From: a virus | Taxonomy: Duplodnaviria; Heunggongvirae; Uroviricota; Caudoviricetes | Reading direction: 5' to 3' (one strand) | Length of the DNA stretch: 28,426 bases | Virus record (IMG/VR): IMGVR_UViG_2913123054_000008 | Shown: positions 5,188 through 24,104 of the stretch, piece after piece | Layout of the letters: each line of letters opens with the position of its first letter | Numbering within the stretch: position 1 is the first letter of the stretch | Notes under the pieces: model-generated | The model's database searches: none | What the model was told of the DNA's origin: nothing | The model's input: the letters and a program-made list of their open reading frames with translations, nothing else | Position numbers and translations under genes: made by a program

Positions 5188-6366
5188 TTAGCTGTTGACC
5201 GATTCGGCCAGATTCACCAGATATTTATCGGTGATACGCTGGCGCAGGGTTAGGCTTTCCAGTGGGGGAACCGGTGTATAGTCGTAGTCGATATACAGTT
5301 TCCCGGCCTTGAGGGTTTCCTTATCGTTCGATTCCTCGTCGAACCAGCATTCACCGTCCACGATGTAGCCGTTTGATTTCAGCTCGCGGAATTTGGCGTT
5401 AATGCCGTCGACAATGTCACGGATAAGCGATGCGGTGATGGGCTTATCGACCGCCCACATGTGCGCCTCGGCCATCGTGTCGGCCAGCACCTGCGCGGTG
5501 CGGGTGTAGTTCTCAAACAGGAAAAGCGGGTCATCAGAGCAGGTGCGGTTACCCCAAAAGCGGAAGCCATCCTTACGCACCAGTGTCGTGACCCCGGCCT
5601 CGTTGAGCAGATCAGCATCGGTGCCGGATGCCTGCAAATCCCAAAACACTGACGCACTGATGCCGGTAACACCCTGCACGCCGACGTTAGACAGGGTTTT
5701 GTGCCAGCCGACGGTCTGGTCGATATAGGCACGCAGGCCGAGTGCGCGCGCAGTTGCGTATGCCGGTGCGGTGGCGTTTGTGGTGGTATCCCATGCAAGG
5801 AAATCAGGCCAGATGACCATCAGCTCGCGCTGGCTGAAATTCTCGCGATAGGTCATCGCCTCGGAAATGGTTTTACAACCCCATGCGCTGATATAGCCAA
5901 AGGCGCGCAGGCTGATACAGACCGAAGCAAGTGCGACTGCGACCTCTTTGGTATCGAGACCCGGCACGCCGAGAATGCGCGGCTTAACGCCGGTGACCGC
6001 TTCGGCAGTCAACAGCGCCTTGATGCCGGTATATTTACCGTTCTCATCCGTGCCGCCGATGATATTGGAAATGGTCTGCGCTTCGGCGTCTTCTCCGGTA
6101 CCTTCGGCAACACGCACGACAACTGTGACAGGTTTTGACTGGTCGGCGATAGCCTGCAGGGATGCAGCCAGCGTGCCTTTTTTACCGGCTTTCGCAATGG
6201 CGCTTTGCACATTGGTAATCAGTACCGGTTCGTTGAGGGGAAATGTCGTGGCATCTGCATCGCTGGCCGTGCAGACCATGCCGACGATTGCGGTTGCAAC
6301 AGTGGATATGACGCGGGTGCCGTCGTTAATCTCAAGCACCTGCACGCCGTGGTGAAAATCACTCAT
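5188..6366 (-). CDS. FI: contractile tail sheath protein
   Basis: 392 aa; position upstream of the tube gene; size as P2 gpFI. Confidence 0.9.
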   Translation of the reverse strand: MSDFHHGVQVLEINDGTRVISTVATAIVGMVCTASDADATTFPLNEPVLITNVQSAIAKAGKKGTLAASLQAIADQSKPVTVVVRVAEGTGEDAEAQTISNIIGGTDENGKYTGIKALLTAEAVTGVKPRILGVPGLDTKEVAVALASVCISLRAFGYISAWGCKTISEAMTYRENFSQRELMVIWPDFLAWDTTTNATAPAYATARALGLRAYIDQTVGWHKTLSNVGVQGVTGISASVFWDLQASGTDADLLNEAGVTTLVRKDGFRFWGNRTCSDDPLFLFENYTRTAQVLADTMAEAHMWAVDKPITASLIRDIVDGINAKFRELKSNGYIVDGECWFDEESNDKETLKAGKLYIDYDYTPVPPLESLTLRQRITDKYLVNLAESVNS

Positions 6367-16625: not shown

Positions 16626-18395
16626 ATGACCATTTCCACCGATACAACCTTGTTGCATGACCCGCGACGGCAGGCATCGCTGCTTTACTGGCAGGGTTTT
16701 TCCGTGCCACAGATTGCCGAAATGCTGCAGGTCAAGCGCCCGACCGTGCAGAGCTGGAAGCAGCGCGACGGCTGGGACGGCATCGCGCCGATTTCCCGCG
16801 TTGAAAGCAGCCTTGAGGCTAGGCTGATTCAGCTCATCGCCAAGCCGCAAAAGACAGGGGGTGATTTCAAAGAGATTGACCTGCTCGGACGGCAGATTGA
16901 ACGGTTGGCGCGAGTCAACCGCTACAGCCAGACCGGCAACGAAGCCGACCTTAACCCCAACGTCGCCAACCGCAACAAAGGGGAGCGCAAAAAGCCGAAA
17001 AAGAATTTTTTCAGCGACGAGGCTATCGATAAACTAGAGGAATTATTTTTCGACCAGTCTTTCGAGTACCAGTTGCAGTGGTACCGCGCAGGACTGGAGC
17101 ACCGTATTCGTGACATTCTCAAATCCCGCCAGATTGGCGCGACATTCTATTTCTCCCGCGAGGCACTGCTGCGCGCACTCAAAACCGGCCATAACCAGAT
17201 ATTTTTATCAGCCAGTAAAACGCAGGCTTACGTGTTCCGCGAATACATCATCCAGTTTGCGCGACTGGTCGACGTTGACCTGACTGGCGACCCGATTGTC
17301 ATCGGTAACAACGGCGCAAAACTGATTTTTCTCGGTACCAATTCCAACACCGCGCAGAGCCATAACGGCGATCTGTATGTCGATGAAATATTCTGGATCC
17401 CGAATTTTCAGAAACTGCGCAAAGTCGCCTCGGGCATGGCCTCGCAAAAGCACCTGCGCTCGACCTATTTTTCGACACCTTCCACGCTGGCGCACGGCGC
17501 TTACCCCTTCTGGTCTGGCGAGCTGTTCAACAAGGGGCGCAGCCGGATTGCCGACCGCATCGAAATCGACATCAGTCACAGCGCGCTCGCCGGTGGCCAG
17601 CTCTGCGACGATGGCCAGTGGCGGCAGATTGTCACCATTGAGGACGCCCTTGCGGGTGGCTGCACCCTGTTCGACCTCGACCAGCTCAAATGCGAAAACA
17701 GTGATGAGGACTTTAAGAACCTGTTTATGTGCGAGTTTGTCGACGATAAAGCGTCGGTATTCCCGTTCGAGGAGCTGCAGCGCTGCATGGTCGATGTGAT
17801 GGAGGAATGGGAGGACTTTGCCCCGTTCGCCGACCATCCGTTCGGCTCTCGTCCTGTCTGGATTGGCTACGACCCGTCACACACCGGCGACAGTGCCGGG
17901 TGCGTCGTGCTCGCGCCGCCGGTGGTCTCTGGTGGCAAGTTCCGCATGCTGGAGCGCCACCAGTGGAAGGGCATGGATTTTGCAGCACAGGCAGAGGGCA
18001 TCCGCAAGCTGACCGAGAAATACAACGTCGAATACATCGGCATTGACGCAACCGGCCTCGGTCTCGGCGTGTTCCAGCTGGTGCGCTCATTTTACCCGTC
18101 GGCACGCGGCATCCGTTACACACCTGAAATGAAAACCGCAATGGTACTCAAGGCGAAAGACACCATTCGCCGTGGCTGTCTGGAGTACGACGCCGGAGCA
18201 ACCGACGTCACGCAGTCGTTTATGTCCATCCGCAAAACCATGACCAGCAGCGGGCGCAGCGCCACCTATGAGGCCAGCCGCACCGAGGAAGCCAGCCACG
18301 CCGATATCGCATGGGCGACCATGCACGCCCTGTTAAACGAACCGCTTTCTGCCGGTAGCGGCATGCAGCCTAAATCTATTCTGGAGTTCAACTAA
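16626..18395 (+). CDS. P: terminase large (ATPase) subunit P
   Basis: 589 aa; size and synteny with the downstream portal gene. Confidence 0.9.
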   Translation: MTISTDTTLLHDPRRQASLLYWQGFSVPQIAEMLQVKRPTVQSWKQRDGWDGIAPISRVESSLEARLIQLIAKPQKTGGDFKEIDLLGRQIERLARVNRYSQTGNEADLNPNVANRNKGERKKPKKNFFSDEAIDKLEELFFDQSFEYQLQWYRAGLEHRIRDILKSRQIGATFYFSREALLRALKTGHNQIFLSASKTQAYVFREYIIQFARLVDVDLTGDPIVIGNNGAKLIFLGTNSNTAQSHNGDLYVDEIFWIPNFQKLRKVASGMASQKHLRSTYFSTPSTLAHGAYPFWSGELFNKGRSRIADRIEIDISHSALAGGQLCDDGQWRQIVTIEDALAGGCTLFDLDQLKCENSDEDFKNLFMCEFVDDKASVFPFEELQRCMVDVMEEWEDFAPFADHPFGSRPVWIGYDPSHTGDSAGCVVLAPPVVSGGKFRMLERHQWKGMDFAAQAEGIRKLTEKYNVEYIGIDATGLGLGVFQLVRSFYPSARGIRYTPEMKTAMVLKAKDTIRRGCLEYDAGATDVTQSFMSIRKTMTSSGRSATYEASRTEEASHADIAWATMHALLNEPLSAGSGMQPKSILEFN

Positions 18396-18396
18396 A

Positions 18397-19443
18397 ATGG
18401 GTAAACAAAAATCCCGTAAAGCCAACGCACAAAAGGCCAGCAAACCACAACAACTGACCGCCAGCGCACCGCCAAAAACGACAGCGTTCACCTTCGGCGA
18501 GCCGGTGCCGGTACTCGATAAGCGCGACATTCTGGATTACGTCGAGTGCATCAGTAACGGCAAATGGTACGAGCCGCCGGTCAGCTTCTCAGGGCTGGCA
18601 AAGAGCCTGCGCTCTGCCGTGCATCACAGCTCGCCAATTTATGTTAAGCGTAACGTGCTCGCGAGCACCTACATTCCGCACCCGTTGTTATCCCGTCAGG
18701 ATTTCAGCCGCTTTGCGCTCGATTATCTGGTGTTCGGTAACGCCTTTCTTGAGCAGCGCCACAGCGTCACCGGCCAGTTAATCAAACTGCTGGCCTCGCC
18801 AGCCAAATATACCCGACGCGGAGTCGACGATTCGATTTTCTGGTTTGTGGAAAACTTCACCCAGCCGCACGAGTTCGCGCCTGATACCGTGTTTCACCTG
18901 CTGGAGCCCGACATTAATCAGGAGATTTACGGTCTGCCGGAATATCTCAGCGCGCTTAATTCCGCTTGGCTGAATGAATCCGCGACGCTGTTCCGCCGCA
19001 AGTATTATCAGAACGGCGCGCACGCAGGCTACATCATGTATGTGACTGACCCGGCGCAAAGTGCGACCGACGTCGAATCGCTGCGCGAGGCGATGCGTAA
19101 CTCGAAGGGACTCGGCAACTTTAAGAACCTGTTTTTCTACGCCCCCGGCGGAAAACCGGACGGCATCAAAATCGTGCCACTGAGCGAGGTCGCCACAAAG
19201 GATGACTTTTTCAACATTAAGAAAGCCAGCGCCGCCGACCTGATGGACGCGCACCGCGTGCCGTTCCAGCTCATGGGCGGCAAGCCCGAGAATATCGGTT
19301 CACTCGGTGACGTTGAGAAGGTGGCAAAGGTATTTGTGCGTAATGAGCTGTCACCCCTGCAGGATAGGTTCAGGGAGGTAAACGACTGGCTCGGTATGGA
19401 GGTCATCAGGTTCAAAGAGTACACACTCGACAACTTGGAATAA
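18397..19443 (+). CDS. Q: portal protein Q
   Basis: 348 aa; starts 1 nt after the P stop; followed by a terminator and the cos region as in P2. Confidence 0.9.
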   Translation: MGKQKSRKANAQKASKPQQLTASAPPKTTAFTFGEPVPVLDKRDILDYVECISNGKWYEPPVSFSGLAKSLRSAVHHSSPIYVKRNVLASTYIPHPLLSRQDFSRFALDYLVFGNAFLEQRHSVTGQLIKLLASPAKYTRRGVDDSIFWFVENFTQPHEFAPDTVFHLLEPDINQEIYGLPEYLSALNSAWLNESATLFRRKYYQNGAHAGYIMYVTDPAQSATDVESLREAMRNSKGLGNFKNLFFYAPGGKPDGIKIVPLSEVATKDDFFNIKKASAADLMDAHRVPFQLMGGKPENIGSLGDVEKVAKVFVRNELSPLQDRFREVNDWLGMEVIRFKEYTLDNLE

Positions 19444-19452
19444 TCACCTTTT

Positions 19453-19478
19453 AAGCCGCCATTTTGGCGGCTTTTGCT
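19453..19478 (+). terminator. rho-independent terminator after Q
   Basis: Perfect 8 bp stem aagccgcc / ggcggctt with loop atttt, followed by a T-run (ttttgctat). Confidence 0.6.
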
Positions 19479-19481
19479 ATG

Positions 19482-19706
19482 TTAGCCTTTAGACTTTTTA
19501 GGATCATCTTTTCTCTGATAAGTGCGTTCTTCCTGAATTTTCCCATCTTCCTTGTGAATTTTGACCGAACCTGTTTTGTTCGACATAAACTCAGATGTTG
19601 TTTTAATCAGCTCGGCCTTTGTGGTCGCGGTCTTGCTAGGGCGGTCATTGCCCTCTTTTTGCAACTTCCACTTATCGCCATCTTTTGTAATATGATAGTT
19701 ATCCAT
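19482..19706 (-). CDS. small hypothetical protein (DUF2188-like moron between Q and cos)
   Basis: 74 aa from MDNYHITKDGDKWKLQKEGNDRPSK... with a GGAGG RBS; low-GC; the motif pattern (DGxW, KEG, HxxDGKIQ) recalls DUF2188-type small proteins from memory only. Confidence 0.5.
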   Translation of the reverse strand: MDNYHITKDGDKWKLQKEGNDRPSKTATTKAELIKTTSEFMSNKTGSVKIHKEDGKIQEERTYQRKDDPKKSKG

Positions 19707-19910
19707 TAAAGCCTCCAACTGTTGTGGGGAACATAAAGTCTCAATATGGATATTAGCCAAAGCGAAACCGTAAAATTGTGCAACTGATCCCATCCTTTAG
19801 CACCACGCCACAGACGCACCATGCGCCCACGATCACACCCGGCCACTACAGCGCCGTCACGACGTTCTCAGACGATAATTTTTAATAATACGCACCACCG
19901 CTGGCGCGCA

Positions 19911-19929
19911 ATGCTTTCCCCGCCACGCC
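19911..19929. other. cos site (19 nt cohesive-end sequence, P2/186 type)
   Basis: The reverse complement of 19911-19929 reads GGCGTGGCGGGGAAAGCAT, which matches my recollection of the 186 cohesive end and differs at two positions from P2; it sits where cos is expected, just past the Q 3' end. Confidence 0.6.
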
Positions 19930-20253
19930 TGCCCGCTTTATGGAGCGGTTTTAATGCAGTTGCATGACTACTCTGGATCCGCTTCAGCTCTGGCGGCGCA
20001 CGGCCAGAACGGGCAATCCCGGCGCATGCAAAACCATGCACCTGTTGCATGCACGACTAAAAAACGGGGTAATCGCGGAAAAATGGCATAAAAAAATCGG
20101 CATTCACGGTGCCGGTTTGGGGCTGGTTTTATCACGATTACTGGCGCGCAATGCGCCAATAACACTATTGAGGCACATGCTGGCAACAATCACCAGAAAA
20201 ATCGTCGTCCACGGATTTTCATAACAAGAGATAACATATTGATATAGATCCTT

Positions 20254-20445
20254 TTATTTGTGCATTCTGATGTGGTTTAACAAGTGTTTGATAACGACCG
20301 TAAGCTCATCTTTATTGGCTTGCTCGACCATTTTTTCGGTGTAGCTTTCCACCTCACGAGAACTCAGGTCGTTATTTGAAGCCATTACAGTCAGCTTTTT
20401 TGCCCAATCGGCAAACGGGTCTATTGATGAAAGGGAATTAAGCAT
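20254..20445 (-). CDS. small hypothetical protein, divergent from the 143 aa cargo gene (start uncertain)
   Basis: Open frame with helical/charged composition (…SREVESYTEKMVEQANKDELTVVIKHLLNHIRMHK); candidate starts at 20445 (GAGG RBS, 63 aa) or 20385 (43 aa). The 20445 start overlaps the ATG of the opposing gene. Confidence 0.3.
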   Translation of the reverse strand: MLNSLSSIDPFADWAKKLTVMASNNDLSSREVESYTEKMVEQANKDELTVVIKHLLNHIRMHK

Positions 20446-20875
20446 GTCCAAAAACCTCGAATTATTTAACCAGCAGACGGCGGAAATCTTTGCGGTGTTA
20501 TGGGATAACTTCCCGGTGCCACAGGTCATTACCTACGAAAAATTTAACGCCGCGCTACCTGATGACTACTTTGACCAACTTAACTCACCGGAAATGAAAG
20601 CACTGAATCAGTTGCGCAGTGTGGTTGAGGGTACATTCACTTTTCTCAGTGAAAACGGCTACATCCAGTACGGAACAGACCACCAGACCTATTTTTATGA
20701 TGTGCGCCTGACCGAGAAAGCACTCGCCGTGCTTAACAAAAAGCCCGAGGCGCTCGGCGGTAATGAAACAATGGGCGATAAGATTATCAGTGCAGTGAAA
20801 GACGGGACGCCGGGAGTGATTGCCGGTGCGGTGACAAACCTGCTTACCCTCGGTGTCAATCTGGTAACCAGCTAA
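20444..20875 (+). CDS. hypothetical cargo protein, 143 aa, with a C-terminal glycine-zipper-like hydrophobic helix
   Basis: Clean ORF with an AAGGGA RBS-like element; low-GC relative to the core; C-terminus GTPGVIAGAVTNLLTLGVNLV contains a GxxxG pattern; no family recognised. Confidence 0.55.
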   Translation: MSKNLELFNQQTAEIFAVLWDNFPVPQVITYEKFNAALPDDYFDQLNSPEMKALNQLRSVVEGTFTFLSENGYIQYGTDHQTYFYDVRLTEKALAVLNKKPEALGGNETMGDKIISAVKDGTPGVIAGAVTNLLTLGVNLVTS

Positions 20876-20942
20876 CGCCTCGCGGGGCTCGTTGTTCAAC
20901 CCCGTCAGCACTGAAAGCGAGTTTCAGCGCTGACGACGTTTG

Positions 20943-21152
20943 CTATCGTCGACGTGGTGGAGGTGCGTATTTTGTCGGTCTGCTGATGCTATCCAGCTTG
21001 CCGCAATTATCCCTGACTATTTCGGCACACCCGACCAGCTCGGTGGGTGTCAAATTCTCATTGACCATTATCTGCTGCAGGCGATGAACGATAGCCATTA
21101 ACTTAATATTTCTGGTCTGGTGCTGCGGTATTTCACCTGGTAGTCGATGCAT
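20943..21152 (-). CDS. small hypothetical protein (69 aa)
   Basis: ORF with a good RBS (GAGGG, about 7 nt spacer) before the ATG; lies between two copies of a covarying hairpin repeat. Confidence 0.4.
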   Translation of the reverse strand: MHRLPGEIPQHQTRNIKLMAIVHRLQQIMVNENLTPTELVGCAEIVRDNCGKLDSISRPTKYAPPPRRR

Positions 21153-21351
21153 ATTATCACCCTCAATGAATTTTAATCAGTGCCGTCAAAACGCCACTAT
21201 AAAACCCTCTCAGGTCATGTCTCATTCATCACTGGCGTGTCATCAATAGCACATTGAGAAATTTTGAAAGGCAGGACTAAAGCCTCGTGGTCTCGTTACT
21301 CAACCCCGTCGACGCAAAAAGCTGGTTTTTGCGCCAACACGGTTATCATGT

Positions 21352-21582
21352 TTAACGCCAGCTATCGTCTTCCCAAATCTCTTGTAATATGCCGCTTAAT
21401 GTTTCTTTGTCTGCTTCTTTATCGAATCCGATAACCTCTACACCAGTCATTGACCCTTTCTTGACGTTAACTTTTATTGCTGGAAAAACGCATTGTACTC
21501 GATGTGTTATTTCATTCTGAAAAGCATCAATGATCTGTTGCCCTAATTTTTGTTCTTTATCCAACGTGATATTGATTCTCAT
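21352..21582 (-). CDS. dinI: DinI-family protein (DNA-damage-inducible protein I-like)
   Basis: 76 aa; MRINITLDKEQKLGQQIIDAFQNEITHRVQCVFP...VIGFDKEADKETLSGILQEIWEDDSW aligns by eye with E. coli DinI along its length; downstream of an SOS box. Confidence 0.8.
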   Translation of the reverse strand: MRINITLDKEQKLGQQIIDAFQNEITHRVQCVFPAIKVNVKKGSMTGVEVIGFDKEADKETLSGILQEIWEDDSWR

Positions 21583-21585
21583 AAT

Positions 21586-21768
21586 CTAATCAGCCTTATA
21601 AAAATTATCATCTTCGGTTTCGTTATTCTCGCTGTTTGCTAGGTCTGCAATGAGAGTGAGCGCGAGCTTTAAGTCTGATGGCTTGCAGTTTGCAATCAGA
21701 GATACCTCGGCAATAAATTGCACACAAGCCCACTTTTGCTGCGTTCGGCTGAAATGTTCGTCAACCAT
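21586..21768 (-). CDS. small protein, first gene of the SOS-controlled operon (possible Tum antirepressor N-terminal part)
   Basis: 60 aa ORF with a near-perfect RBS (GGAGGG) and a LexA box just upstream; ends with TAG in the same frame as, and 3 nt before, the dinI-like ATG. Confidence 0.5.
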   Translation of the reverse strand: MVDEHFSRTQQKWACVQFIAEVSLIANCKPSDLKLALTLIADLANSENNETEDDNFYKAD

Positions 21769-21787
21769 GGAATCCCTCCTACAGGGT

Positions 21788-21807
21788 TACTGTATGTTTA
21801 TACAGTA
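21788..21807. promoter_or_regulatory. LexA (SOS) box upstream of the 60 aa / dinI-like operon
   Basis: TACTGTATGTTTATACAGTA contains CTGT-N8-ACAG and matches the enterobacterial SOS-box consensus TACTGTATATATATACAGTA at 18 of 20 positions; it overlaps a TATAAA -10-like hexamer on the coding strand. Confidence 0.75.
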
Positions 21808-21881
21808 GCACGTATTGGTAAAAGATGGGAAGAAAAAAAACGAATAGGGCGATTGTCGTATGTACATGATATGGATATAAA

Positions 21882-24104
21882 TTACTCTGATATTGGTTTT
21901 GATGCTTCAGCTATCGCAGCAACACGATTAAGGATTTTCCTGGCTTTAGCCTCATGCGATGGTGCTGTGGAAAATATTTCTCCTTTGGCCGTTCCGCGTA
22001 GCCATTTACCATCAAAACAACTTTTACCACCGGCCATCAGGTGCAGAGCTTCGCCCCGGCTGATATTAATGCCGGTTGTCAAATGTATCTCTTCGATAGT
22101 TTTCGCTATAGCTGCGTTTTGCTCATCCGTTCCGTGGACGAATTTTCGCCGTGCTGCTGGCTTTTGCTTCCTGAGTCGGTTGGTCAACTCTCGTCTTTCA
22201 CGCCGACTCAGTGGTTTTGTTAAATCCAGTATCGGTGGATCGCTTTCGCTTCCCGTACAGTTATTGACAGAACTCCGAGGGACGGCTTTGCCGTCCTGAA
22301 GGTCAACGGCCAAATCAACAGCACGCTTCGGAACAATCTTCCACTGAGTGAGCCGGGTTAAAATCGGACTCCCTGCACCTATGGAGGAATCGTAGACTCC
22401 CTTAATACATACCGTTTCCTCACCGTACTGATTAAGCTCGGTACGCGGTTCATACAGTGTGCGCACCTGTAAATCATCGCGACGGACAAACGGCCCACCC
22501 TGAGCATTAACATAACCAGCCCAGTCACCAGCGTCGGCGGCATCATGGACGGCGGCAAACTCAACGCTCAGTCCGTGCGCGGTTTCGGTATCAGCGAGGC
22601 GACGCAACTCACGGTAAACCGTCACCGGCGCACCACCGATAAACTGAAACTGACGGATGTGCCAGCGCGCAGCCCATGCTGAAACGGCGGGGGCTGTCTC
22701 TTTCAGTAGCTCACCGCTTTCATCATCGGTTTCACCATCGAGAGCATAACCGTCGATATTTTTTGAAATGTATTTAGCAACATAGCCTGTTGCGCTGCCT
22801 TTCTCCGGGTCAATGGACTCGGCGTGGAAACGTGCTTTTTTGGATTTATCGCTTTTCAGTTCGTGGCGGTCTTCTTTCCATGCGTATTTACGGACGATGG
22901 AGCGAACATATTCAACATCTTCCGGCAGCATGAACATCAGCATGTGCCAGTGTGGAGTGCCGTCGTGATGAGGCTCGGCGACACGAATACCGAAAATACG
23001 GACATCTTCCCGATGTAGTTTGGCACGGATACGCGCCCAGATACCGGTTAGATAGTTTTGCGTGTCAGCCGGGCTGGCACCGCTCCATTTGCTGTTACGG
23101 TAACCGGCTTTAGTCGTGGCGTGATATTTTGACGGCGCGGTTAGAGTGTAAAACTCACCGACATAACCGAGCTCATTACAGATGTTTTCAAACCCACGAA
23201 TGCGGGTCATGAGCTCACAGCGGCGAATCGCAGGGTTAGCAACTGAGCCATCATATTTTTCAATCAGGCTGATACGGTTGCCGTCTTCGTCTTCGAGATC
23301 CAGACCTTTGAGAAATTCACGAGTGCGGCGCTTTTGTTCACGCCAGTCAGTCACGCAGTTTTTACTCGCGTAAGTGTTTTTTTTCTTACTGACGTTGCCG
23401 ACTGCAATTTGCAGGTGTTCGCGCCACGTAGCTGCAACACGGCGCAAACGACCGCGCCACCACCCATCGTTAAACATTTTGGCGATAGCCGGTGCGATTT
23501 CATCCGCACCGACATATTTTTTTTCAACCCGCTCCCAATGTGGTGGGATAACGTTAAATTGGAGGGAAATAAAGCCAGCACGAATATACCAGGTGTACAG
23601 CGTTTTAAGCTCGCCGAATCCGTGGTCATTAATGTTGGCAAGTTCACCACGAATGAAATTAGCAATATCAGCGGCCAACAGGTCAACATCAGCGCGCGAC
23701 ATATCCGGGAGACGGTTATATCGGGCGACCATATTAACCATGCGTGACGACAGATATTGCATTTGCTGAGTATCAAAATGACTTCCAAAAACAGCGGTTG
23801 ATACCTTGCTGTTGATACCAGCGCATTCGTATTTTTTTGCGACCAGTTCAAGACGCGGCAATGCCTTTTTGCAGAAGTTGATTAAAAATGCATTGGCTCG
23901 TTGACTACCCTGATTTTGCTCCAGCACCGCAGCAGTGCGATAAACATCTAACCGCACGCAGTCGGGCTGGAGAGAAAGCACCTTTTTTGCATGCAGCAAA
24001 GCCGCGAACATACGGTCGCGGCGATGCTGTTGCTCATAAGTAAGGTATGGGCTGGAGATTGCCGACCGTGGGACGTTCCACGGATAAGCGAATTGAACAG
24101 CCAA
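21882..24104 (-). CDS. A: replication initiation protein A (rolling-circle endonuclease, gpA-like)
   Basis: 740 aa; contains TLTAPSKYH, HHDGTPHWHM and AKYISKNIDGYALDG motifs recalled from P2 gpA; last gene of the early operon. Confidence 0.9.
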   Translation of the reverse strand: MAVQFAYPWNVPRSAISSPYLTYEQQHRRDRMFAALLHAKKVLSLQPDCVRLDVYRTAAVLEQNQGSQRANAFLINFCKKALPRLELVAKKYECAGINSKVSTAVFGSHFDTQQMQYLSSRMVNMVARYNRLPDMSRADVDLLAADIANFIRGELANINDHGFGELKTLYTWYIRAGFISLQFNVIPPHWERVEKKYVGADEIAPAIAKMFNDGWWRGRLRRVAATWREHLQIAVGNVSKKKNTYASKNCVTDWREQKRRTREFLKGLDLEDEDGNRISLIEKYDGSVANPAIRRCELMTRIRGFENICNELGYVGEFYTLTAPSKYHATTKAGYRNSKWSGASPADTQNYLTGIWARIRAKLHREDVRIFGIRVAEPHHDGTPHWHMLMFMLPEDVEYVRSIVRKYAWKEDRHELKSDKSKKARFHAESIDPEKGSATGYVAKYISKNIDGYALDGETDDESGELLKETAPAVSAWAARWHIRQFQFIGGAPVTVYRELRRLADTETAHGLSVEFAAVHDAADAGDWAGYVNAQGGPFVRRDDLQVRTLYEPRTELNQYGEETVCIKGVYDSSIGAGSPILTRLTQWKIVPKRAVDLAVDLQDGKAVPRSSVNNCTGSESDPPILDLTKPLSRRERRELTNRLRKQKPAARRKFVHGTDEQNAAIAKTIEEIHLTTGINISRGEALHLMAGGKSCFDGKWLRGTAKGEIFSTAPSHEAKARKILNRVAAIAEASKPISE

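Follow-up and report, generated by a model that had tools for sequence, protein, structure and literature searches.

A conserved head-to-head two-gene cassette in the cos-proximal hotspot of a 186-like prophage, with a plausible role in phage defence or exclusion

The stretch of DNA analysed here (hereafter the window) comprises 28,426 nucleotides (nt) of a Caudoviricetes virus (IMG/VR record IMGVR_UViG_2913123054_000008) and is a 186-like (Peduoviridae) prophage. Between its cohesive-end site (cos) and its replication gene A, it carries two divergent genes with overlapping start codons. The big gene (20444-20875, plus strand) codes for a protein of 143 amino acids (aa) and belongs to PHROG 2266, while the small gene (20254-20445, minus strand) codes for a protein of 63 aa and belongs to PHROG 2454, both families being of unknown function. 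Judged from the conservation of their sequences, both open reading frames (ORFs) are real genes, and together they make up a “moron” of temperate phages, namely an accessory cassette of two genes that is autonomous and moves horizontally. A role in defence or exclusion is plausible from the position and the architecture of the pair. Tentatively, the cassette may pair a defence or exclusion protein, non-enzymatic and produced by the lysogen, with a small antagonist or regulator, a reading that we prefer by analogy with known systems while giving it a modest chance. The kind of element is already known, namely swappable hotspot cargo of P2-family phages, possibly with a self-immunity partner, and its protein families are uncharacterised.

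The locus had been singled out by an original prediction, made from the letters of the sequence, as unassigned accessory cargo at the cos-proximal hotspot of a P2-family prophage, consisting of two head-to-head ORFs with overlapping start codons. On these points it is borne out: both ORFs are present at 20254-20875 and form a genuine two-gene unit, and PHROGs 2266 and 2454 are the sole family matches of a pair that had been described as assignable to no family. A look into PADLOC, which it had proposed, shows the pair to be absent from version 2.0, and the proposed comparison across related prophages does reveal cargo swapping, the cassette being absent from phage 186 and present in phage Midge, FSL SP-004 and ST147-VIM1phi7.1 with differing neighbours.

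The opposing ATG codons overlap in a CATG palindrome (20443-20446), as read from the sequence. The ORF facing the big gene also exists in a long form (20254-20529, minus strand, 91 aa). However, the ATG at 20445 is almost certainly the true start of the small gene, with a product of 63 aa, because the match to PHROG 2454 (E 6.9e-38) covers residues 29-91 of the long form only, and because a form of 63-64 aa is called independently in the annotations of Midge, FSL SP-004 and E. coli 2452. The upstream extension is missing from some relatives. Each gene has a Shine-Dalgarno (SD)-like motif lying within the first codons of the other: AAGGGA of the big gene (20431-20436, plus strand) falls in codons 4-5 of the oppositely oriented small gene, and GAGG of the small gene (20455-20458, minus strand) is the antisense of codons 4-5 of the big gene (AAC CTC). 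Of 75 unique junctions, 51 (68%) have an SD-like motif ahead of the big start and 67 (89%) have one ahead of the small start, against a background of 8%.

Median pairwise ratios of nonsynonymous to synonymous substitution rates (dN/dS) indicate purifying selection in the enteric clade (big gene 0.08, small gene 0.16), and amount to 0.25 and 0.30, respectively, in the Pseudomonas-type clade. The small ORF shows an excess of third-position variation and a conserved length, and its product is modelled by AlphaFold2 (AF2) as a three-helix bundle (helices 10-23, 30-42 and 45-62; mean per-residue confidence, pLDDT, 84), for which no informative structural neighbours were found. Together with the frequency of the SD-like motif before the small start and the fact that an Rfam scan of 19400-21900 gave no match, these data speak against the explanation that the small ORF is an antisense-RNA template, that is a type-I-like regulator of the big gene, or that one or both ORFs are annotation artefacts. 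Such an explanation would fit the necessary complementarity of the 5' ends of the two transcription units and the failure to find canonical promoters (see below), but in view of the coding signatures of the small ORF in both clades and of its confident model we regard it as very improbable.

The 143-aa protein has 72 close clusters across Enterobacterales, all without a Pfam domain, and the 63-aa protein has 56 homologous clusters; in both cases the names given do not go beyond hypothetical or uncharacterised. When the two proteins and more distant homologues were compared with Pfam, NCBIfam and PADLOC, nothing reached cut-off. The members of alignment A2, made of distant homologues, gave only sporadic sub-threshold matches to Pfam at E <= 0.1, DUF2513 not being among them. 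Several candidate relatives were considered and rejected: FabT/MarR as a relative of solved structure (the best sequence-profile match to the PDB is just E 0.43), T7 gp5.5/5.7, a similarity reported by the annotators of Midge that was reproduced by no search in this analysis, and two candidates from the literature, GiPD474 (Gifsy ATPase) and the Fc02 overlapping exclusion genes, which are unrelated to the cassette.

The big family is large and widely distributed. A profile search of 1.84 billion representatives retrieved 797 clusters at E <= 1e-3, of which 164 also pass E <= 1e-10; among those listed, the matches are mostly 125-170 aa long and aligned over nearly their full length. The majority of the family is negatively charged overall, and members are found in Pseudomonas, Vreelandella, Limnobaculum and others. 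The exact proteins of the window occur in the unclassified Escherichia isolates E4385 and E1V33, where they are named “hypothetical protein”, and orthologues lie on more than 1000 Salmonella contigs. Among 5426 complete E. coli genomes, 56 (around 1%) cover at least 80% of a 711-bp query that takes in the cassette. Its neighbours in other phages include a retron reverse transcriptase, an AAA ATPase or a Fic gene: the pair is carried by Midge (95.5% identity), by FSL SP-004 (94%) next to a Fic-like gene, by Klebsiella ST147-VIM1phi7.1 (82%) beside a retron-like reverse transcriptase and XRE pair, and by E. coli 2452 with an AAA ATPase and a GNAT gene.

Gene contexts retrieved for nine family members are mostly prophage positions, and these differ from phage to phage. 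The pair lies between tail tube and tail chaperone genes in two loci (L009 and L015); it also adjoins gpA and integrase in L010, a P2-like prophage of Vreelandella, and has holin genes on one side and terminase genes on the other in L013. Further members are flanked by lysis and tail-fibre-assembly genes (L141) or occupy the P2 cos hotspot (L144), while two are situated in islands rich in insertion sequences (L012 and L143).

Across 138 loci, comprising the window, public phage records, GTDB genomes and 125 IMG/VR contigs, the exact CATG start overlap is present in 106, from Escherichia to Pseudomonas and including Vreelandella prophages. A divergent ATG-initiated ORF of at least 45 aa starts within a few nt in 119 of the 138, and this pairing holds down to about 25-30% identity of the big protein. 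Both neighbours could be called in 134 loci, and in 107 of these the gene downstream of the big gene converges on it; the big gene is embedded antisense in a same-strand block in 64 loci, and in 34 its stop codon is 0-1 nt from the convergent gene. As a rule, then, the cassette is oriented antisense to the phage operon that it interrupts. The neighbour calls come from a crude heuristic, which agrees with the called genes of the retrieved contexts. The small partners fall into two BLAST clusters, an enteric one (63-64 aa; motif NNDLSSREV.SYT.K.VEQA..EL..VIK.LLNHIRM.K) and a Pseudomonas-type one (74-84 aa; motif ...RARHYW.KTLEETPKE..., often with a Cys-rich tail). No description of this CATG head-to-head architecture, conserved in more than 100 loci and several phage types, was found in the searchable literature.

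Other arrangements are seen among relatives of the big gene. In a Helicobacter pullorum prophage (L150, BK070133.1, 2212-2890), a distant homologue with 29.5% identity to the Pseudomonas query P0250 (E 9e-8) is co-directional with an upstream gene of 96 aa, which it overlaps by 8 nt, so that this arrangement is not head-to-head. Two metagenomic P2-like contigs (L144 and L145) carry at the cos hotspot a big relative (47%) without a small partner. Next to it in L144 lies a true DUF2513 (PF10711) winged-helix gene (5553-5981, minus strand), and thus two different small winged-helix proteins adjoin in the hotspot of these contigs.

In the window, the pair is placed in the gpQ-gpA hotspot because it is flanked by the portal gene (18397-19443) and cos (19911-19929) on one side and by replication gene A (21882-24104, minus strand) on the other; the terminase and portal genes together occupy 16626-19443 (plus strand). 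The cos site is of the 186 type and was read from the sequence as the reverse complement of GGCGTGGCGGGGAAAGCAT, which we take to be the 186 cohesive-end sequence, and the linear genome end of Midge maps to about 19921 of the window (blastn). From cos to A, the gene order is an 86-aa ORF, the small ORF, the 143-aa ORF, a 69-aa ORF, a DinI/Tum-like gene, a 60-aa ORF and a LexA box. The two-gene unit had been described as a low-GC module; its [G + C] content is indeed below that of the window, although the drop is modest (45.8% versus 53.2%, with 41% in the small gene and 49% in the big one). Experimental work supports the gpQ-gpA region as a reservoir of anti-phage systems (Rousset et al. 2022, PMC9122126; also Moura de Sousa et al. 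2026, PMC13586616). In the P2-locus table of Rousset et al. 2022 (PMC9122126), the E. coli orthologue WP_000042039 figures only as “hypothetical”, and none of the systems tested in that study starts with the N-terminus of the big protein (looked up as MSKNL and LFNQQTAE).

Comparison with phage 186 by blastn and junction alignment delimits a segment of about 742 bp (20129-20870) that is absent from 186. On its left, 19930-20128 corresponds to positions 1-199 of the 186 locus at 85% identity (the cos-proximal end), and on its right, 20871-20942 corresponds to positions 212-283 at 93% (just downstream of orf97), the two homologous blocks being only about 12 bp apart in 186. The right junction coincides with the stop codon of the big gene, and neither a target-site duplication nor terminal repeats were seen at the edges of the segment. 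The unit shared by enteric loci with different flanks is smaller still, about 646 bp (approximately 20228-20873), with BLAST ends at 20228-20229 on the left in loci with different flanks and clustered at 20865-20877 on the right. Its left edge is a conserved non-coding block (20228-20253) just past the small-gene stop, the columns of which are mostly at least 90% conserved among 42 enteric sequences.

Two short repeats, an exact 14-mer CTGGCGCGCAATGC present as a direct repeat (19901-19914 and 20141-20154) and an 18-mer direct repeat of 83% identity (20092-20109 and 20197-20214), represent cos-proximal sequence that recurs just inside the left edge of the segment absent from 186. The cassette may have arrived along with a piece of the cos-proximal region of another phage.

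The structure of the big protein was predicted by AF2 from 26 sequences with high confidence (pLDDT 91.6; predicted template modelling score, pTM, 0.87). The model comprises a winged helix at residues ~1-98 (helix 3-22; strands 27-30, 74-78 and 83-89; long helix 49-70) and the later helices 91-98, 110-120 and 123-142, the last two of which form a C-terminal hairpin. It suggests that the protein is one compact domain made of a winged helix and a helical hairpin. The original prediction had assumed a soluble N-terminal part; an N-terminal domain is indeed present, and is more precisely an acidic winged helix, the protein having an isoelectric point (pI) of 4.55 and a net charge of -7 (family median -5). 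The residues that are invariant across distant members (N4, F8, L19, F23, L68, L89, L97 and G111) are hydrophobic or structural, and none of them suggests catalysis.

The modelled fold is that of MarR/PadR-like winged helix-turn-helix (wHTH) transcription factors, a generic fold, and would be compatible with a regulatory switch, in which a winged-helix DNA-binding repressor or activator and a small antirepressor or co-regulator form a face-to-face toggle controlling phage or host genes. Nevertheless, we consider this unlikely. Besides the acidity of the protein, residues ~28-60, where the DNA-recognition helix is expected, are the least conserved of the family, with indels and few basic residues, and the tip of the wing is acidic or neutral. 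No curated family in Pfam or NCBIfam is matched above cut-off, and a conserved basic recognition helix or wing is lacking at this pI. Compared with MarR/PadR and DUF2513-like proteins, the cassette protein thus differs by its acidity, its non-conserved “recognition” segment and an extra conserved C-terminal hairpin. Moreover, the cassette occupies unrelated positions in unrelated phages, which leaves no constant neighbouring target, and no conserved operator-like palindrome was noticed, although none was searched for systematically. According to another explanation, the acidic winged-helix protein would act in counter-defence or host takeover by inhibiting a host defence, nucleoid or transcription factor, with the small protein as a modulator; to this we assign a low probability.

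The C-terminal helix deserves separate consideration, because a membrane-acting abortive-infection effector or toxin, inserting through a C-terminal glycine-zipper helix and accompanied by a small antitoxin or immunity factor, had originally been proposed from it. The segment GVIAGAVTNLLTLGVNLVT (residues 124-142) is uncharged, contains one GxxxG pattern and has a mean Kyte-Doolittle (KD) hydropathy of 1.57, a borderline value for a membrane helix. Proteins of the enteric clade lack charges in their last ~20 residues, which have 19-mer means of 1.57-1.73 and a small/polar face (G124, G128, N132, T135, N139 and T142), and a tucked-in hydrophobic helix of this kind could be freed upon a trigger; a toxin with a small neutraliser would also suit the conserved pairing. 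However, these features do not extend to the family: over 349 sequences, the median KD of the equivalent C-terminal 19-mer is 1.07, no more than 2% of the sequences attain 1.6, and K, R, D or E is present in most, so that a conserved uncharged segment of ~19-21 residues, as expected of a single-pass or tail-anchored membrane effector, is not found across it. In addition, the C-terminal helices of the AF2 model have a pLDDT of 90-95 and, with the pTM of 0.87, suggest a single compact domain. The support for a membrane reading is thus weak, and the glycine-zipper membrane helix is better described as an amphipathic helix packed on the domain than as a conserved membrane anchor, the enteric clade being its hydrophobic extreme; a membrane-associating role in that clade is possible. 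The genetic organisation also differs from that of a type II toxin-antitoxin pair, which is co-transcribed with an obligatory antitoxin, since here the genes are divergent with mutually antisense 5' ends and about 16% of the loci have the big gene without a partner, an unlikely situation for a constitutive toxin. Overall, a membrane toxin appears rather unlikely.

The transcriptional setting of the cassette counts in favour of the preferred reading, i.e. a defence or exclusion protein with a small antagonist or regulator. Upstream on the minus strand lies a perfect LexA box TACTGTATAAACATACAGTA (21788-21807), part of a p95-like SOS promoter, which is homologous to the annotated p95/LexA site of 186 and contains the single occurrence of CTGT-N8-ACAG in the window. 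It is directly followed by the 60-aa ORF (21586-21768, minus strand; PHROG 1993). The DinI-like (Tum-type) gene (21352-21582, minus strand; 76 aa; Pfam DinI, E 1.4e-18), which is context outside the cassette, has 72% DNA identity to 186 tum, and precedes the 69-aa ORF (20943-21152, minus strand; PHROG 11386, of unknown function). The final terminator of this SOS tum operon, a homologue of t95b (20098-20114, minus strand) formed by a hairpin and AUUUUUUUAU, was recognised by a terminator scan, by its fold and by its position relative to the 186 record U32222. Because it lies beyond the cassette, the latter is situated inside the 3' end of the LexA-controlled tum unit, and transcription from p95 would oppose the big gene but follow the direction of the small gene. 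The minus-strand transcript from the p95-like promoter would first cover the 60-aa gene, the DinI/Tum-like gene and the 69-aa ORF, and then the complement of the big gene and the small gene itself. Such SOS read-through across the cassette is plausible from the order of these elements. The operon matches p95-tum of 186, but the 146-aa Tum is replaced by a short single-domain DinI protein.

A second constraint comes from the compactness of the cassette. As the minimal unit has almost no flanking DNA, the small gene or the DNA just past it must contain the promoter of the big gene, and the two mRNAs would consequently be complementary at their 5' ends. The cassette could then alternate between two states. 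In the lysogen, the big gene would be on, and its product, which is assumed to be made there, would bind a component of superinfecting phages and lead to exclusion or to a late block. When lytic or SOS transcription of the prophage reads through the cassette from the tum operon, the small protein would be delivered as an antagonist or regulator, and the same read-through, being antisense to the big mRNA, should shut the big gene off. The prophage would thereby be spared its own weapon. In its strongest form, this would make the cassette a widespread prophage “weapon-plus-safety-catch”, in which a protein blocks a late step by direct binding, its antagonist appears solely upon read-through of the operon of the prophage itself, and mutually antisense mRNAs make the two expressions mutually exclusive; we hold this specific version to be doubtful.

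The closest functional parallel is the Tab/anti-Tab pair of phage JBD26, where tab lies antisense, with its own promoter, inside the late operon, and atab lies sense in that operon (Patel et al. 2024, PMC10884400). The prophage expresses Tab, which blocks virion assembly. Anti-Tab is produced together with the late genes and neutralises Tab by binding to it, which lets the prophage escape (PMC10884400). A similar self-sparing logic has been shown experimentally for TerI/anti-TerI of Listeria. The cassette resembles Tab/anti-Tab in that two small genes without family form a moron within a phage operon, in the non-enzymatic nature of both, and in having the effector opposite to the operon strand and its partner on that strand (here, the big gene on the plus strand and the small gene, the tum operon and A on the minus strand). 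On the other hand, Tab has 83 aa and no reported winged helix, whereas the big protein is a 143-aa winged helix, and homologues of Tab are confined to one position of JBD26-like phages, whereas the big family occurs in Enterobacterales, Pseudomonas, Vreelandella and more, at many positions. The relation would thus be one of working like Tab/anti-Tab rather than of membership.

Several observations weigh against a defence or exclusion pair that works in this way. The PADLOC-DB 2.0 hidden Markov models gave no match at E <= 1 to either protein of the window, to five distant homologues of the big protein or to three small partners. Comparison of Tab (gp31, 83 aa) and anti-Tab (gp30) with the big profile and both small profiles gave hhalign P values of 0.06-0.66, the best being 0.059 over 11 columns, and tab and atab are arranged tail-to-tail with overlapping 3' ends, whereas the present pair is head-to-head with overlapping starts. 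The partner-less loci (about 16%) include relatives that are 47-55% identical to the window protein and that have an ordinary intergenic region in place of the small gene, which implies that a small antagonist is not obligatory. Where partners exist, the enteric and Pseudomonas-type small proteins could not be united into one family (hhalign P 0.12, homology not significant). As for transcription, a consensus scan of the window and a position-conserved scan of 40 enteric and 55 Pseudomonas-type sequences revealed no convincing sigma-70 promoter of the big gene within 260 nt upstream in either clade. Read-through into the cassette could be limited in the window, since the minus strand of 20876-20945, between the 69-aa ORF and the cassette, folds strongly (-32.7 kcal/mol, z -3.97; no U-tract), and a terminator-like hairpin follows the small gene in several Pseudomonas-type loci. 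The same promoter scans returned a weak candidate for the small gene, TAGTCA-16-TAAATT, in 27 of the 40 enteric sequences.

Like P2 old/tin and the other gpQ-gpA cargo, the cassette sits in the portal/cos-to-A slot, is swapped as a discrete block and is co-resident with defence genes in relatives, but it has no homology to Old or Tin and is also found beyond this hotspot and beyond P2-like phages. In phage 186, the closest classical relative, the same p95/tum transcription unit includes orf97 upstream of t95b, and the record of this gene notes that “expression from plasmid blocks 186 infection” (U32222). In contrast to the cassette, orf97 is sense-oriented; it is 243 aa long and unrelated, and its slot is taken in the window by the 69-aa ORF, the cassette lying further downstream.

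Prophage hotspots are a main source of new anti-phage systems, and this pair is among the cargo missed by automated tools. If the big protein is an effector with a built-in antagonist, the cassette would be a second and far more widespread example of the Tab/anti-Tab principle, by which a prophage blocks its rivals late in infection and spares itself. The conserved overlap of opposing starts represents a compact regulatory design, which could act by mutual antisense control or transcriptional interference, and provides a simple genomic signature for finding more cassettes.

Some additional features surround the cassette. Just past the stop codon of the big gene lies a hairpin with 12 of 13 bp paired (20904-20934), which is part of a 46-nt direct repeat (D1) of 74% identity (20885-20930 and 21289-21334). 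The two copies flank the 69-aa ORF and each ends in a hairpin, and the copy at 21289-21334 overlaps a predicted terminator downstream of the DinI/Tum-like gene. Because Midge lacks the 69-aa ORF cassette, these repeats may be recombination points for gain and loss of cargo downstream of tum. In four Pseudomonas prophages (L009, L015, L061 and L066), a perfect 10-bp GC-rich hairpin, GAAGCCCCGC-N6-GCGGGGCTTC, is a conserved non-coding element located ~60-170 nt past the small-gene stop on the small-gene strand, and resembles a terminator within the tail-gene operon.

On the cos side of the cassette, the 86-aa ORF (19964-20224, plus strand) starts in the cos-proximal DNA shared with 186 and extends into the segment absent from it. 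It matches PHROGs 17882 and 6595 and is “hypothetical” in the Midge annotation, and it may not be a real gene, since conservation is low and patchy in the 3' part that could be aligned (20114 onward only). Finally, the DNA separating the portal gene from cos holds a DUF2188 gene (19482-19793, minus strand; Pfam E 7e-18). This gene matches the PADLOC candidate system PDC-S16 (E 1e-14), which makes it a second, separate possible defence cargo on the opposite side of cos from the cassette.

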